The notes beneath the pieces were generated by a model, which ran no database searches, had not been told where the DNA came from, and saw nothing but the letters and a program-made list of their open reading frames with translations. From a virus (Duplodnaviria; Heunggongvirae; Uroviricota; Caudoviricetes), in the IMG/VR virus record IMGVR_UViG_2657244971_000002: a DNA stretch of 6,220 bases; one strand, given 5' to 3'. Numbering within the stretch: position 1 is the first letter of the stretch; the number at the start of each line of letters is the position of its first letter. This document shows positions 1 through 6,220 of the stretch, in pieces. The translations under genes and the position numbers were made by a program.

Positions 1-1305
1 CTGAGACAATACGGCCCGACCACTGGCAGGTTTGCCCTTAATCGTCCAGCCACGCATATCAGGGATCACGCCTGACGGATAAGCCGCTGCAAGTTTCGGG
101 TATGCAGATTTGTCAAAAGCCTGCCCCTGCATCAGGGCATAACCAGACGGAACGGTATCTGATGGCCACGGGATTGGTGCGCCGACTGGGTAGCTTTCTG
201 GTGGAAGATTTTTCGAGGTATAAACTTCTGCCCAGTCTTCCTCAAAACCATAGCCATCTCTTGAGGAACGGTAGAACAGACCTCCATTTCTGTAATGTGC
301 CTTCATCTGCAAGGTCCGGCAACTTCCGACTCCGGTATAGAAGTTAACCAGAATATAGGTGTCGCCAGAGCGGGTGACATTGTAAGCGCCTGATTCGGCA
401 TTCCAGGGAACGCCACCATCCGCATCGGCATATGTATCCGTTGCCCTTCTGGCAAAAGCAGCCACATGCGCGGCGGTTAAAGTAATATCTTTGGAACCAT
501 CAAACTCAACACCAGAAACCCGTCTTGGCGTTTGCAGCTTTGTTGCTGTTAATGCATTACCGTTCAGACTTGCGGACAGTTTGGTTCCAATAACCAGTTC
601 GCCGGTTGCGTTATCAATAGAAAACGGTCTTAATGTATTCCAGCCACCATAAACATCACCTTGATTGGTAAGCAGCAGGTGAGTTTTAGCGCCATCATTA
701 CGCCATAATGCACCATACTCCCCACCTATCATTCGAATCTGATTACCACCACGCGCTACAATTTCGTCTGTGGCAAAAAGTTTTTTGCACGACAAGTTAT
801 CGTTAACGATTAACGAATTAGACTCATAAAAACCACGCCCACTCTTAAAATCAAGGATAACGTCCGCCGCGATACATTCAGTCGCCGGATTTGTTGCCCC
901 AAACTTATAGATCGTATCATTAACAACGAGATCAGCACCAGGTGCGGATATTGACAGGCCATCTTCGATAAACGCAAAAACAGGGAAAGCTGCGCCATCA
1001 ACATAGAACACAGAGCGCAAATCATCGCCCTTATTACTCATCATTATTGAGTGGATGGCTCGTTCATTGTTTTGATATTGCCAGAACATTCCATAAGCAT
1101 AACGCCCCCTGTCAGTCCAGCCGCCAGGCATAACAAATCCGTTAAACTCGCAGTTATTCATCGGATCGCCTGCGGTTCGCGTTGCCGTGGTGATAATGAC
1201 CCTTGATGCCAGTTCGCTTACTGAGCCAGCAGAACGCATAACAACAACAGGGTAATATTTTCCAGATGTTGCACCTGCAGGAGCGTTAACCCGCACATAA
1301 CGCAT
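1..1305 (-). CDS. stf: Side tail fiber protein (lambda Stf family), partial; 3' end continues beyond window position 1
   Basis: Manual translation of the minus strand gives one uninterrupted frame from ATG at 1305..1303 to position 1 (435 codons: [28 protein letters not shown] ... [64 protein letters not shown]). The C-terminal stretch matches my recollection of lambda/E. coli prophage Stf proteins. Not in the ORF track because there is no stop in the window. No clear Shine-Dalgarno before the ATG. Confidence 0.8.
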
Positions 1306-1549
1306 AACCGACACGGGCAGACTTCACCACATTCACCTCACGGATGTAGTCGCTGCCCATCGCATTCATGATGGCCCGCTGAAAGGGCAGTGTTTCCCAG
1401 CGCCCTTCCTGGTATGCGGATTCTTTCGGGAGATAGTAATTGGCATCCGCCCATTCAACGGCGGTCTGTGGCTCCGGCCTGAACAGTGAGCGAAGCCCGG
1501 CGCGGACAAAATGCCGCAGCCTGTTAACCTGACTGTTCGATATATTCAC
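1286..1549 (-). pseudogene. A: Terminase large subunit gpA, N-terminal fragment only (87 codons; intact gpA is several hundred residues longer)
   Basis: Translation [82 protein letters not shown] matches the lambda gpA N-terminus as I recall it, then diverges (ALCAG, stop). GTG start overlaps the Nu1 3' end as in lambda. Confidence 0.8.
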
Positions 1550-2069
1550 TCAGCAACCCCGGTATCAGTTCATCCAGCGCGGCTGCTTTGTTCATGGCTT
1601 TGATGATATCCCGTTTCAGGAAATCAACATGTCGGTTTTCCAGTTCCGGAAAACGCCGCTGCACCGACAGGGGGATCCCGTCGAGAATACTGGCAATTTC
1701 ACCTGCGATCCGCGACAGCACGAAAGTACAGAATGCGGTTTCCACCACTTCAGCTGAGTCTCTGGCATTCTTCAGTTCCTGTGCGTCGGCCTGCGCACGC
1801 GTAAGTCGATGGCGTTCGTACTCAATAGTCCCTGGCTGGAGATCTGCCTCGCTGGCCTGGCGCAGTTCTTCAACCTCCCGGCGCAGCTTTTCGTTCTCAA
1901 TTTCAGCATCCCTTTCGGCATACCATTTTATAACGGCGGCAGAGTCATAAAGCACCTCATTACCCTTGCCACCGCCTCGCAGAACGGGCATTCCCTGTTC
2001 CTGCCAGTTCTGAATGGTACGGATACTCGCACCGAAAATGTCAGCCAGCTGCTTTTTGTTGACTTCCAT
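1524..2069 (-). CDS. nohA: Terminase small subunit Nu1 (DNA-packaging protein), 181 aa
   Basis: Full-length translation MEVNKKQLADIFGASIRTIQNWQEQGMPVLRGGGKGNEVLYDSAAV ... SEYIEQSG corresponds to lambda Nu1 (N-terminal winged HTH) from memory. ATG at 2069, TAA at 1526..1524, 26-nt overlap with the A start. Confidence 0.93.
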   Translation of the reverse strand: MEVNKKQLADIFGASIRTIQNWQEQGMPVLRGGGKGNEVLYDSAAVIKWYAERDAEIENEKLRREVEELRQASEADLQPGTIEYERHRLTRAQADAQELKNARDSAEVVETAFCTFVLSRIAGEIASILDGIPLSVQRRFPELENRHVDFLKRDIIKAMNKAAALDELIPGLLSEYIEQSG

Positions 2070-2093
2070 TGTTCATTCCACGGCCAAAAACAG

Positions 2094-2215
2094 AGAAAGG
2101 AAACGACAAAGGCCCAAAAGCTCGTTTTCAGCACCTGTCGTTTCCTTTCTTTTCAGGGGGTATTTTAAATAAAAACATTAAGTTACAACGAAGAAGAACG
2201 GAAATGCCTTAAACC
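2094..2215 (-). other. cosB-like terminase-binding region (R-element repeats, probable IHF site) between cosN and Nu1
   Basis: Perfect 15-bp inverted repeat agaaaggaaacgaca (2094..2108) / tgtcgtttcctttct (2136..2150), 27 bp apart, plus a related tttccgttcttcttcg-type element near 2196..2211 on the minus strand. Position and sequence resemble lambda cosB R-sites (recalled). Confidence 0.6.
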
Positions 2216-2246
2216 GGAAAATTTTCATAAATAGCGAAAACCCGCG

Positions 2247-2258
2247 AGGTCGCCGCCC
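2247..2258 (-). other. cosN: 12-nt cohesive-end sequence (terminase nicking site)
   Basis: Plus strand 2247..2258 is aggtcgccgccc, whose reverse complement GGGCGGCGACCT is the lambda left cohesive end. Adjacent 2259..2274 cgtaacctgtcggatc is the reverse complement of the lambda right-end sequence GATCCGACAGGTTACG. Confidence 0.8.
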
Positions 2259-2457
2259 CGTAACCTGTCGGATCGCCGGAAAGGACCCGCAAAATGATAA
2301 TAATTATCATCTGCATGTCACAACGTGCATCTACGCCATCAAACCACGTCAAATAATCAATTATGACGCAGATATCGTATTAATTGATCTGCATCAACTT
2401 AACGTAAAAACAACTTCAGACAATACAAATCAGCGACACTGAATACGGGACAACCTC

Positions 2458-2643
2458 ATGTCAACGAAGAACAGAACCCGCAGAACAACAACCCGCAACA
2501 TCCGCTTTCCTAACCAAATGATTGAACAAATTAACATCGCTCTTGAGCAAAAAGGGTCCGGGAATTTCTCAGCCTGGGTCATTGAAGCCTGCCGCCGGAG
2601 ACTGTGCTCAGAAAACAGGTCAGACCAGATTGAAGCAATTTAG
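2458..2643 (+). CDS. ynfO: Small ribbon-helix-helix (Arc/MetJ-like) DNA-binding protein, 61 aa, YnfO-like
   Basis: ORF with ATG at 2458 and weak SD ggga 7 nt upstream. Arg/Thr-rich N-terminal arm ([11 protein letters not shown]), predicted beta-strand NIRFP, then helix / G-S-G-N-F-S turn / helix ([11 protein letters not shown]), typical of RHH folds. Position next to cos matches the Qin ynfO context (recalled). Confidence 0.78.
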
Positions 2644-2690
2644 ATAATCGTGCAGACTACGCCCCCTCATATCACATGGAAGGTTTATCT

Positions 2691-3101
2691 ATGGATCAGG
2701 TAGTCATTTTTAAACAAATATTTGATAAAGTTCGAAACGATTTAAACTATCAATGGTTTTATTCTGAGCTAAAACGTCACAATGTCTCACATTACATTTA
2801 CTATTTAGCCACAGAGAATGTTCATATTGTATTAAAAAATGATAATACAGTGTTATTAAAGGGCCTAAAAAACATTGTGTCTGTCAAATTTTCAAAGGAT
2901 AGGCATCTTATAGAAACGACCTCTAATAAGCTGAAATCCAGAGAGATCACATTTCAGGAATACAGAAGAAACCTTGCTAAAGCAGGAGTTTTTCGGTGGG
3001 TTACAAATATCCACGAACAAAAAAGATATTACTATACCTTTGATAATTCATTACTATTTACTGAAAGCATCCAGAAAACTACACAGATCTTACCACGCTA
3101 A
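2691..3101 (+). CDS. ydfO: DUF1398-family protein of unknown function, 136 aa, YdfO/YbcV-like
   Basis: Track ORF is 2676..3101. The internal ATG at 2691 is preferred because the SD-like ggaagg at 2678..2683 sits 7 nt upstream; the 2676 ATG has no SD. Family assignment from recalled similarity to Qin YdfO / DLP12 YbcV. Confidence 0.82.
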
Positions 3102-3109
3102 ACCATAAC

Positions 3110-3138
3110 GTCCGGCTTCTCTCACTCCTGAGCCGGAC
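3110..3138 (+). terminator. Possible stem-loop downstream of ydfO (8-bp GC-rich stem, 13-nt loop); weak or atypical terminator
   Basis: gtccggct (3110..3117) pairs perfectly with agccggac (3131..3138). Followed by tgcattggtttaataaaaa rather than a clean U-tract. Confidence 0.3.
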
Positions 3139-3200
3139 TGCATTGGTTTAATAAAAACCATCAACAATTGTGATTTAGATATTCGGAACCATTCAAATAT

Positions 3201-3223
3201 AACAAAACCCCGTAAAAACGAGG
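3201..3223 (-). terminator. Putative intrinsic terminator for gnsB
   Basis: Minus-strand RNA cctcg-uuuuua-cgggg followed by uuuuguuauauuu, about 30 nt downstream of the gnsB stop. Confidence 0.4.
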
Positions 3224-3252
3224 TTTATGGATAAATTTTATTATTGAATACA

Positions 3253-3426
3253 TCAGATTAAATTAATCTTGACATCATAGCTTTCAAGACCCGTCATTTT
3301 TTCCCGTGCGGTAAACTGAATACTGGTAACTTCTTTCCCGGTCTTTTTCTTAAGTTCAATAATTTTTTTTGTTATATATTCAGAAATATCTGCTTCTGCT
3401 TTTGTTTTTAAGTTTTCAATATTCAT
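3253..3426 (-). CDS. gnsB: GnsA/GnsB-family small protein, 57 aa
   Basis: Not in the ORF track (too short); found by translation: MNIENLKTKAEADISEYITKKIIELKKKTGKEVTSIQFTAREKMTGLESYDVKINLI. The FTAREKMTGLESYDVKI motif matches my recollection of E. coli GnsA/GnsB. SD gaggaa at 3435..3430; tandem ATGs at 3429 and 3426 (second chosen); TGA at 3255..3253. Confidence 0.8.
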   Translation of the reverse strand: MNIENLKTKAEADISEYITKKIIELKKKTGKEVTSIQFTAREKMTGLESYDVKINLI

Positions 3427-3474
3427 CATTTCCTCTTTTAGTCTGTTATGACTTTCCAGTTACACAGTAAGTCG

Positions 3475-3503
3475 ATTATATGGTGCAAACGTGTAAAAGA
3501 TAA
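3475..3503 (-). promoter_or_regulatory. Candidate sigma70 promoter for gnsB (perfect -10 TATAAT, weak -35)
   Basis: Minus-strand TATAAT at 3480..3475; weak -35 TTATCT at 3503..3498 with a 17-bp spacer; about 45 nt upstream of the gnsB start. Confidence 0.3.
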
Positions 3504-3597
3504 GATGAAACATCGCAATAATCAACATACGATAGTCTAAATTTTACACAAACAGACAAAGAGAATTTTCCTGAATTATCAATGCAATAGCATCAAA

Positions 3598-3828
3598 TCA
3601 ACTCAAGAGCCTTATTGCTGCTTCCAGAATTTCTTCTGAAGTAACATGTCGATCCGCGGCTACATAAATGACTTTATGATCTCCGGTCAGAGATGGAAAC
3701 CCTGCGGCCATTACAGTAAGGTGTGTTTTTTCGCCATTTGGATATTCACGCATGATGGTGTTAACTCCAGTCATCGCTGGCACTACCACTGCTGGTTCAG
3801 AGTTAAAAAAAACTATGATTTTTTTCAT
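3598..3828 (-). CDS. ynfN: Small protein of unknown function, 76 aa, YnfN-like (cold-shock-associated in Qin)
   Basis: Track ORF 3598..3870 begins at a TTG immediately after a terminator U-tract; the first ATG at 3828 (MKKIIVFFNSEPAVVVPAMTG ...) is preferred. Symbol inferred from position between cspI and gnsB (recalled Qin gene order). SD weak. Confidence 0.7.
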   Translation of the reverse strand: MKKIIVFFNSEPAVVVPAMTGVNTIMREYPNGEKTHLTVMAAGFPSLTGDHKVIYVAADRHVTSEEILEAAIRLLS

Positions 3829-3872
3829 GATGTTACCGTAGTATGTGAGTATCCATCGAATAGACACCAAGC

Positions 3873-3894
3873 AAAAAAGCTCCCGAAGGAGCCT
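3873..3894 (-). terminator. Intrinsic terminator between cspI and ynfN (UUCG tetraloop hairpin plus U6)
   Basis: Minus-strand RNA aggcucc-uucg-ggagcuu followed by uuuuuugc. Plus strand: a-tract 3873..3878, gctcc 3879..3883, cgaa 3884..3887, ggagc 3888..3892. The flanking A-tract could make it bidirectional. Confidence 0.6.
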
Positions 3895-4099
3895 TCATTT
3901 TCACTTTTTTAAATCCAACGACAGACGGCTGGCATTTAAGTATTGTGAAATATTATCAAATGTAATCATCATTGATTTACAAAAGATACATTTTGCCCCG
4001 AAAGGATTCATGTCAGAAACATCAAAAGATGATGTTCTATACTGGGAACCATGACAACACGGGCATCTAAAGTGAATATGGTTTGTAATATTGTCTACC

Positions 4100-4312
4100 T
4101 CAAAGCGCCACTACATGAACAGCGGCAGGACCTTTAGGTCCGTTCTCAATACCAAATTCAACTTCCTGATTCTCAGTTAATGTTTTGAAATCGTTGCTCT
4201 GAATTGCTGAGAAATGGACAAACACATCTTTGCTGCCATCTTTCGGCGTGATGAAACCAAAACCTTTTTCAGGGTTAAACCATTTCACTAAACCAGTCAT
4301 TTTGTTAGACAT
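4100..4312 (-). CDS. cspI: CspA-family cold-shock protein, 70 aa
   Basis: Translation [70 protein letters not shown] carries the RNP1-like KGFGFI and RNP2-like VFVHF motifs. cspA-like context aaaggtaataatt before the ATG and aatgactggt downstream-box-like sequence inside the ORF. Confidence 0.93.
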
Positions 4313-4460
4313 AATTATTACCTTTTGAAGAAATTAGCCCTTGGGCAGAATGGTCCGAAAAAAATATCAGAGAGAAAAACCAACAAGGAAATCTCAAGAG
4401 GTACAAATAATAAAATTATAACAATGACTGCTTCAGATAAATTTGTAACAAACCAGAACA

Positions 4461-4490
4461 CCATTAACGCATGATTAACCACCCATAGCA
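4461..4490 (-). promoter_or_regulatory. Candidate cspI promoter (cspA-like -35/-10), giving a 5'UTR of roughly 140-150 nt
   Basis: Minus-strand TTGCTA (4490..4485), 17-bp spacer, GTTAAT (4467..4462); compare recalled cspA TTGCAT-17-CTTAAT. The predicted long 5'UTR is typical of cold-shock csp genes and contains a gcccaagggc element resembling the cspA upstream box gccgaaaggc. Confidence 0.45.
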
Positions 4491-4673
4491 AGGATTACTT
4501 TTGTAAAGAAAAACACAGCAATGAAAGAATAGCTTTATTTATTAATAAAACGTGTCATTCTGATTAAGACCTTTTATCTTACCCTTAAGATTTCAGGAAT
4601 TTTGGCTCATGGAAGAGTCCTTTTTATTTAAATTTTACATTCCGCGATGTAAATGTTCCGATTTAATATTACC

Positions 4674-5697
<1,024 letters not shown>

Positions 5698-5701
<4 letters not shown>

Positions 5702-5985
5702 ATATATTTATGATGAGGACGCTCGTGCTTATTGGCAGGATTTTCAATCTTAAAGGAGTACTGATGCTGCAGATAAGACTCAACTTTTTCTGACAATTTT
5801 TCTGCTACTTCCAGGAAGACTTGCCGGACGCTCCTTCTGGCTGCTGCCTCATAAAACTCCAGCGCAGCTCCTTCAACACGGTCCATGGCGACATCCAGGT
5901 CAAAAATTTCACCGTCAAAGCGTTCTTTGTCCTGTAAGGCTACAGTTACCGTAACTTTATTCTCAAAATTACGGACTCCTTTCAC
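5698..5985 (-). CDS. ydfR: DUF1327-like protein of unknown function between holin and endolysin, 95 aa; start uncertain
   Basis: ORF with GTG start at 5985. No in-frame ATG exists between the upstream in-frame stop (6072..6070) and 5985, and no clear SD. Family and symbol assigned from recalled Qin gene order essQ-ydfR-rrrQ. Confidence 0.68.
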
Positions 5986-6013
5986 AACCAGTTCATAGTC
6001 TTGAGTCGTTGGA

Positions 6014-6220
6014 TTACTCTCCTCTCGCAGCCTTACGCCTGTCTTCTTTAATCTTGAAATAAAGATTTGTCAGATACGTCAGCAGGCCAAAAACCAGGCT
6101 ACCCAGCACACCGATTGCAGCCCACTGTGACGGAGTTACTTTATCGAGTAACTGCAATGCCCAGAAACCAGCATTACCCGCCGATGTGCCATAGGCAACA
6201 CCTGTTGTTAACTTATCCAT
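6014..6220 (-). CDS. essQ: Class II holin, phage 21 S-type pinholin, 68-aa form; start codon abuts the window edge
   Basis: [68 protein letters not shown]: two TMDs (the first Gly/Ala-rich, SAR-like) and a charged C-terminus, as in S21 (recalled). The ATG is the last three bases of the window, so any upstream antiholin start cannot be seen. Confidence 0.9.

Follow-up and report, generated by a model that had tools for sequence, protein, structure and literature searches.

The stretch of DNA analysed here (the window, 6,220 bases) represents the late region of a cryptic E. coli prophage of the lambdoid, Qin-like type and makes up the terminal 6.2 kb of contig LLYN01000066.1 from the draft assembly GCA_001484405.1. 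The contig ends within the side tail fibre gene stf, one base past window position 1; on its far side it carries ynfB, ynfA and a remnant of rspA, and the ydfJ side of the prophage lies beyond the contig end in stf. The genes essQ, ydfR, rrrQ, rzpQ, cspI, gnsB and nohA are read from the minus strand and ynfO and ydfO from the plus strand. In BLAST comparisons with the Qin prophage of K-12 MG1655, window positions 6220..2605 were 99.8% identical and positions 2618..1541 were 98.0% identical, and this near identity, together with the late-region order essQ-ydfR-rrrQ-rzpQ-cspI-gnsB-ydfO-ynfO-nohA, identifies the element as Qin-like. That the window could be K-12 Qin itself was considered and rejected, as K-12 joins nohA directly to stfQ. 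Rfam detected a cspA thermoregulator upstream of cspI and nothing else in the window.

Downstream of these genes, a 5' fragment of the terminase gene A (A') is followed by a fragment of stf (stf'), as shown in Table 1. The A reading frame (MNISNSQ...VKSARVGY) starts with the GTG at 1549..1547, a start codon that lambda A uses too, and nohA overlaps this start by 26 nt, the same as in lambda. The frame keeps 82 gpA codons down to position 1304 and then continues with ALCAG, five stf-derived codons read out of frame, before the TAA at 1288..1286; it ends after these five foreign codons because the joint is out of frame. The protein is deposited in GenBank as KUH18767.1, 'hypothetical protein', and an exact search with it led to the source contig. 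The weak match to PF05876 covers residues 47-83 only, equivalent to profile positions 3-41 of 247, and of a functional gpA, which has ATPase and nuclease domains in a protein of about 641 aa, only codons 1-82 remain.

The stf' frame contains no stops in 435 codons and runs off the end of both the window and the contig. Compared to 2H10, it shows 98.5% nucleotide identity, 11 codons differing synonymously and 8 non-synonymously; the open frame and these counts fit either a recent deletion or continued constraint. Regarding its domains, the C-terminal features of a functional Stf/StfR protein (Gp34_trimer, gp37_C and Collar in Pfam, within an open frame) are kept, with about 150 last codons lying beyond the window. 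At the N-terminal side, by contrast, neither PF08400 (residues 1-134 of intact Stf) nor an own start with a Shine-Dalgarno sequence (SD) was found. The lost PF08400 (phage_tail_N) domain is the hallmark of full-length prophage side tail fibres and would act in their attachment to the tail.

Table 1. Features of the window around the joint between A and stf.
Feature	Position	Strand	Basis
stf', codons 533-967 of a 2H10/StfR-type side tail fibre (1117 aa)	1..1305	-	alignment, Pfam
A' chimeric pseudogene ORF, 87 codons	1286..1549	-	weak PF05876 GpA_ATPase match, alignment
ATG, internal Met533 codon native to stf and first ATG remaining in the truncated frame; no SD upstream	1303..1305	-	alignment
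Deletion joint, TAT microhomology	1304..1306	-	BLAST end points and base-by-base alignment
In-frame GTG, A-derived, three codons upstream of the ATG	1312..1314	-	SD weak (-2.8 kcal/mol)
TGA closing the stf frame upstream, in A sequence out of frame	1324..1326	-	reading frame
Block collinear with lambda nt 1-956 (left cohesive end, nu1, 5' end of A)	1304..2258	-	98.4% identical
nohA, complete 181-aa homologue of lambda Nu1 (terminase small subunit)	1524..2069	-	PF07471 Phage_Nu1, orthologue annotation

The joint between A and stf

The closest intact relatives of the two halves of the window are the phages 2H10, ev099, Kati and PhiR34_1, which have the stf allele of the window, and the prophage of isolate F467 (NZ_OY754409), with 98-100% identity in Nu1/A and 98.5-99.7% in stf. 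Unlike in the window, the two halves are separated in them by head and tail genes amounting to about 20 kb, and their Stf has its own start, SD and PF08400. F467 is an apparently intact Qin-like prophage at the same locus, in which the head and tail genes from nohA to stf are all present, and it shows what an undeleted relative looks like. As an intact parent for both sides of the joint, F467 was rejected for stf, its central stf being a different mosaic allele without MRYVRV; phage 2H10 and ET979 replaced it as the stf-side references.

A preliminary description of this DNA had claimed that a deletion joint fuses the A fragment to a tail fibre frame, and had proposed an alignment against lambda A and intact stf genes to place the breakpoint. 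This alignment was run with six comparators (lambda, 2H10 and four Qin-like loci, including ETEC1748, ET979 and 2020CK-00188 from closed genomes). A homology stops at 1304 and stf homology begins at 1306, and BLAST end points and base alignment agreed in setting the joint of the 82-codon A fragment with stf to the TAT at 1306..1304. The same end points were obtained when stretches of 311 nt and 601 nt across the joint were used as queries against 5,426 complete E. coli genomes and 50,697 phage records, as all A alignments ended at 1304 and all tail fibre alignments started at 1306.

At the base level, lambda and the Qin-like A genes read ...GTGTCGGTTAT before the breakpoint and TCCAAAATG after it, intact stf reads ...GATAAGCGTGGTAT followed by GCGTTATGTGCGG, and the window reads ...GTGTCGGTTATGCGTTATGTGCGG. 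The lambda sequence given for this point in the preliminary description, cggttat followed by tcc, is the one found in the alignment. The TAT corresponds to codon Tyr82 in the A parent, whereas in the stf parent it is made up of the final base of Gly532 and the AT of Met533. These are the sole bases common to both parents, as the remaining similarity between the flanks is at chance level, and the two flanks, each of them collinear with an intact reference, abut exactly without an insert. Because the TAT is common to both parents, the crossover can be placed only within or at the edges of 1306..1304, that is, between 1307/1306 and 1304/1303, and a finer placement is impossible.

The joint is a true breakpoint and not a chance divergence. 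Two observations had been put forward beforehand as arguments against a deletion, namely a divergence of A at this same point in related intact phages and a natural start of stf homologues at MRYVRV. Neither was found: A is collinear past the joint in lambda, 2H10, F467 and four other Qin-like loci, and intact stf genes do not start at MRYVRV, Met533 being internal. All the coordinates given in the preliminary description hold on the minus strand.

The size of the deletion was calculated on phage 2H10, which shares both A and the stf allele with the window. Because its equivalent TATs are at 1698-1700 (A) and 21959-21961 (stf), the deletion amounts to 20,261 bp in 2H10 coordinates. What is missing is A from codon 83 to codon 641, the entire set of head and tail genes, lom, and stf up to codon 532.

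No joint-spanning match was detected in the 5,426 complete E. coli genomes (megablast, 311 nt), and an exact 35-nt pattern spanning the joint was absent from the GTDB species-representative genomes and from the JGI metagenome contigs. These absences, and the nearness of the joint to a contig end, 1.3 kb away in a repeated gene, are what could be expected from a chimeric contig end in a short-read draft, i.e. an assembly artefact. However, in the Logan assembly of an independent run (ERR9882103), the identical joint is crossed by a contig of 995 nt, which reaches window position 1277, with differences at 5 of its 995 positions, all of them in nohA or upstream. The chimeric 87-aa A' protein is also present in the NCBI assembly (KUH18767.1), many analogous real joints exist in closed genomes, and a 3-nt overlap is far too short for a graph mis-join, so we consider an artefact extremely unlikely. 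Therefore, on the basis of the independent contig and of an overlap unable to produce such a mis-join, the joint was taken as real and as a rare, lineage-specific allele. No description of this joint was found in the literature.

Start codons and translation of the stf fragment

The preliminary description had the stf frame closed by a TGA and reopened by the ATG, and both codons are present where they had been placed. The TGA sits in A-derived sequence, GTGGTGAAG, seven codons upstream of the ATG. It had also been proposed that the ATG was formed across the breakpoint, giving rise to a new, N-terminally novel tail fibre protein. The A and the T of this codon do fall in the 3-nt common stretch and could formally come from the A side, but a complete in-frame ATG was found in every intact stf examined (2H10, ET979, ETEC1748 and 2020CK-00188), all four reading GATAAGCGTGGTATGCGTTATGTGCGG, i.e. 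...DKRG-M533-RYVRV.... Because intact stf already has this in-frame Met533 codon, the ATG was not created by the joint; it is the ordinary Met533 codon, which happens to be the first ATG left after the deletion.

Regarding the product, translation from ATG 1305 would yield Stf from residue 533 to its end, an N-terminal truncation with zero novel residues. The GTG at 1314..1312, overlooked in the preliminary description, is the only start that adds novel residues, three in number (M-S-V), and its SD is weak. The formation of a start codon across the breakpoint, leading to a novel tail fibre protein, is accordingly rejected as extremely unlikely. What remains of the original proposal on this side is that the fusion affects an internal point of the gene (codon 532/533), but not that a new start arose there.

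The putative ribosome binding sites were compared by the duplex energy of the 3' end of 16S rRNA with the 17 nt upstream of each start. The energy for ATG 1305 was -0.5 kcal/mol, at the 66th percentile among all ATG/GTG sites of the window, whose median was -2.2 kcal/mol; GTG 1314 and the in-frame GTG 1296 reached -2.8 and -2.4 kcal/mol, respectively. As the native stf start in 2H10 showed -6.0 kcal/mol, the earlier remark that no SD is evident before the ATG was borne out. A consensus scan revealed nothing promoter-like from nohA to the joint, and in a promoter and terminator scan of positions 1..2500 the counts were at shuffle expectation, with nothing near the joint. Transcription of stf' would depend on the silent late operon of the prophage.

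Termination-reinitiation over short distances occurs in bacteria. ATG 1305 and GTG 1296 precede the TAA of A' by 17 nt and 8 nt, respectively, and backward reinitiation after this stop is possible insofar as it would fit the geometry, which in itself is no evidence for coupling. In the databases, some comparable truncated fragments (VREC0864, XJ34) are annotated by PGAP as ordinary CDS, and K-12 stfQ is listed as a protein.

Other deletions at the Qin-like locus

Two joints of K-12 resemble that of the window. The nohA-stfQ joint of Qin (b1548/b1547) belongs to the same prophage family, has also lost the morphogenetic region between the terminase genes and stf, and is followed by a C-terminal stf fragment and then by tfaQ-pinQ. 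Its breakpoint, however, falls at the end of nu1 and the very start of A (Table 2) and its stf is much more distal (StfQ, 320 aa), whereas in the window 82 codons of A are left and stf is retained from codon 533 on; the two joints are independent events. In the aaaD-tfaD joint of DLP12 (b4634/b0561), the 5' part of a terminase large-subunit gene has likewise become joined to the tail fibre region with a 3-nt overlap, and the annotation lets the next ORF begin at an internal start, overlapping with the A' pseudogene. This joint (lambda 1018/22119) has its left end 62 nt further into A than that of the window, but it belongs to another prophage and locus, and its right end lies in tfa (lambda nt 22119), with no stf left.

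The size of Qin differs widely among strains, from 11 to 97 kb (PMC6379469). Other Qin-like alleles share with the window the locus, the flanking genes, a left end in nu1/A and a right end in lom/stf. Ten of them, taken from the best full-window matches in closed genomes, were mapped onto lambda and 2H10; all these best matches have extra DNA between A' and stf'. As the survey found its alleles through their match to this window, it is tilted to those that keep stf. As shown in Table 2, left ends span lambda nt 347-2197 and right ends 3110-5088 in L006 coordinates, each allele having its own end points, and in some alleles parts of L or J, or an internal segment of A, are left.

Table 2. Joints in other alleles of the locus. 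Right ends are in 2H10-locus (L006) coordinates unless said otherwise.
Allele	Left end (lambda nt)	Right end	Remarks
K-12	719	distal stf	
ETEC1748	2197	stf 4938	
ET979	2160	lom 3110	stf intact
2020CK-00188	1893	stf 4468	in-frame A-Stf fusion ORF, 1,172 aa
GmM062	1879	3603	
G4/9	698	3550	
YPE10	648	5088	
VREC0864	625	4442	
XJ34	1756	4482	
LZHX12	347	4936	via L and J pieces
GCA_017721875.1 and GCA_014816085.1	A nt ~956	stf	via A 1335-1564, then J

In total, at least eleven other joints from Nu1/A to lom/stf were found at the same Qin-like locus, with alignment overlaps of 2-5 nt and no inserted DNA, as is also true of the DLP12 joint. By our own calculation, two or more common bases would be present in about 16% of random joints, and three or more in about 5%. 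The consistency of the 2-5 nt overlaps therefore points to microhomology-mediated illegitimate recombination, and the 3-nt overlap of the window would agree with RecA-independent slippage or end joining. Literature searches on microhomology and prophage domestication returned nothing specific.

That the deletion was the work of a transposable element, or of the Pin-family invertase nearby, was also considered, given that the pin gene lies just past tfa in related loci and that IS elements are present in some Qin-like alleles. We give almost no credence to this possibility, as the parents abut to the base, with neither an IS end nor a target duplication nor an inverted-repeat crossover site, but only the TAT between them. 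A search for repeats around the joint detected only short ones at chance level, without any IS-like or inverted-repeat structure, and no end of a mobile element was seen at any of the joints.

Beyond the joint, the source element shows three further deletions with respect to F467: one from rspA to ydfA (about 7 kb, 3-nt overlap), another from cro to ydfU (about 9.2 kb, 6-nt overlap), and a third of 58 nt in ynfO, between TGCTCAGAAAA(A/C)AG repeats (14-nt overlap).

Some breakpoints lie near one another across alleles (lambda nt ~956 twice; stf 4936 and 4938; stf 4442, 4468 and 4482). As evidence for hotspots this clustering was set aside, as it concerns about a dozen alleles that were ascertained by their similarity to the window, and it counts as no more than a lead.

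All the other surveyed deletion alleles keep an open C-terminal stf plus tfa. Along with the frame of at least 435 codons in the window and the distances from the A' stop to ATG 1305 and GTG 1296, this would be compatible with a Stf' protein (533 to the end) made by reinitiation after A' and kept as a useful free receptor-binding fragment, for instance one that blocks the receptor used in superinfection. Such a role is unlikely, given that there is neither an SD nor a nearby promoter-like site, that transcription would rely on the silent late operon, that the survey favours alleles with stf, these having been found by their match to the window, and that the stf breakpoints are spread over at least 2 kb, without a fixed module boundary. 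A further elaboration, in which reinitiation at Met533 or GTG 1296 yields a Stf fragment that together with Tfa benefits the host (e.g. by masking a phage receptor), and in which the deletions were shaped by selection or by hotspots, appears very unlikely. The hints given for this last reading were the near-coincident breakpoints (lambda nt ~956 in two alleles that are unrelated, L006 4936/4938 and 4442-4482).

Origin of the joint and its meaning

Taken together, the joint is very probably an ordinary microhomology-mediated deletion scar in a Qin-like cryptic prophage, with a native ATG and with A' and stf' as pseudogene fragments. In the proposed course of events, a crossover in the common TAT would have joined A after codon 82 to stf at codon 532/533. 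About 20.3 kb would have been lost with it, comprising the rest of A, W, B, C/nu3, D, E, FI, FII, Z, U, V, G/T, H, M, L, K, I, J, lom and the first 532 codons of stf. As the joint is out of frame, A' ends early; the A-derived TGA closes the stf frame upstream. Having no promoter, SD or N-terminal domain of its own, stf' would be left as a pseudogene fragment, most likely without a protein role, and its value would be that of DNA for homologous recombination with infecting lambdoid phages.

The deletion may have been produced in one 20-kb step or may be the last of several. In the second case, an element already shortened in the manner of ET979, 2020CK-00188 or ETEC1748 would have lost a further 1.3-3.1 kb, and the older joint would have been erased. 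This is a possibility to be reckoned with, though a rather doubtful one. It is favoured by the existence at the same locus of intermediates that hold A past codon 82 and stf upstream of codon 533, and by the stepwise decay that at least three other deletions reveal in the source element. Against it, nothing in the window tells one step from several, and no single parent is picked out among the candidate intermediates, with identities of 97.6-99.0% in A and 98.5-98.7% in stf.

In terms of annotation, A' and stf' are best described as pseudogene fragments and not as a new tail fibre protein. The joint is a new allele of the well-known decay of lambdoid prophages, its exact form being absent from the complete genomes searched, and on its own it matters little. 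The locus as a whole, with at least a dozen independent deletions and the apparently intact prophage of F467, provides a natural series in which the mode and pace of prophage decay can be followed. The pieces that persist are the lysis genes, the cold-shock genes, nohA and the C-terminal stf-tfa-pin block.

Recombination of lambda with the stf-tfa region of Qin was measured by De Paepe et al. at about 2x10^-6, and exchange with the nu1-A region of DLP12 was about a hundred-fold higher (PMC3945230). The nu1/A' and stf' blocks retained in the window belong to a type of sequence for which recombination with incoming lambda has been demonstrated experimentally (PMC3945230), and a role of such retained blocks as a reservoir for infecting phages is plausible.

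Deletions in the source element

A Qin-like prophage was located between rspB and ydfJ in isolate F467 (NZ_OY754409.1, 2306905-2358500). Since an integrase and the whole head and tail module are present, as are J, lom, stf and tfa, this prophage is apparently a complete Qin-like element resembling 'intact Qin', although the central segment of its stf differs from that of the stf allele in the window. When the element in LLYN01000066.1, the contig from which the window derives, was compared to the F467 prophage, two more large deletions were detected, which are included in the table below together with the features annotated in the window.

Features of the window and large deletions of its source element
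Feature	Coordinates	Strand	Size	Genes lost	Overlap at junction	Basis and remarks
cspA thermoregulator (RF01766)	window 4073-4457	-				Rfam, 114 bits; spans the cspI 5' leader and gene start
ynfO	window 2458-2643	+				
Deletion rspA (host gene) to ydfA	L016 (LLYN01000066.1) 1772-1774		~7 kb	int, xis, exo, dicB	3 nt	LLYN01000066.1 vs. F467
Deletion cro to ydfU	L016 (LLYN01000066.1) 2558-2563		~9.2 kb	relBE, hokD, rem, flxA	6 nt	LLYN01000066.1 vs. F467

A small deletion was also found within ynfO, where 58 nt present in K-12 and in all the other Qin-like loci examined are missing from the window (2605-2618). This deletion is flanked by the imperfect direct repeats TGCTCAGAAAA(A/C)AG and shifts the reading frame, thus yielding a product of 61 aa compared to the 77 aa encoded without the deletion. 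The presence of a cspA thermoregulator at cspI is unsurprising for a cold-shock gene carried as a moron in Qin.

Comparison with the independent contig

Five positions differ between the window (1755, 1770, 1776, 1927 and 2205) and the Logan contig from the independent run ERR9882103, which spans the same A-stf joint, all of them in nohA or upstream of it and none in the terminase A fragment or the joint, and these differences may result from gene conversion with paralogous noh copies of other prophages. Both the NCBI contig (ending at window position 1) and the Logan contig (ending at 1277) break inside stf soon past the joint, a pattern consistent with these genomes carrying stf as a repeat in several copies (Rac stfR and others); therefore, the tfa-pin side of the source element is out of view.

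Terminase A and stf breakpoints in other strains

A deletion from A to stf was also detected in strain 2020CK-00188 (NZ_ABACVG020000001.1, L004 2500-6018), in this case in frame. In the resulting fusion ORF of 1,172 aa, which PGAP labels as 'terminase gpA endonuclease subunit', about 394 N-terminal residues from terminase gpA are followed by Stf from about residue 355.

Another Qin-like allele, found in GCA_017721875.1 (L019 4240-4250) and GCA_014816085.1 (L020 613-623), has its A breakpoint at most 5 nt from that of the window (lambda nt ~956-960). In this allele A ~956-960 is joined to A nt 1335, whereas in the window A is joined to stf; neither of the two alleles can be the ancestor of the other. 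In stf, the right-hand breakpoints of other strains likewise fall almost together, at 4936/4938 and at 4442/4468/4482 (coordinates of the phage 2H10 locus, L006). Such near-coincidence of breakpoints in A and in stf could reflect either a hotspot or chance.
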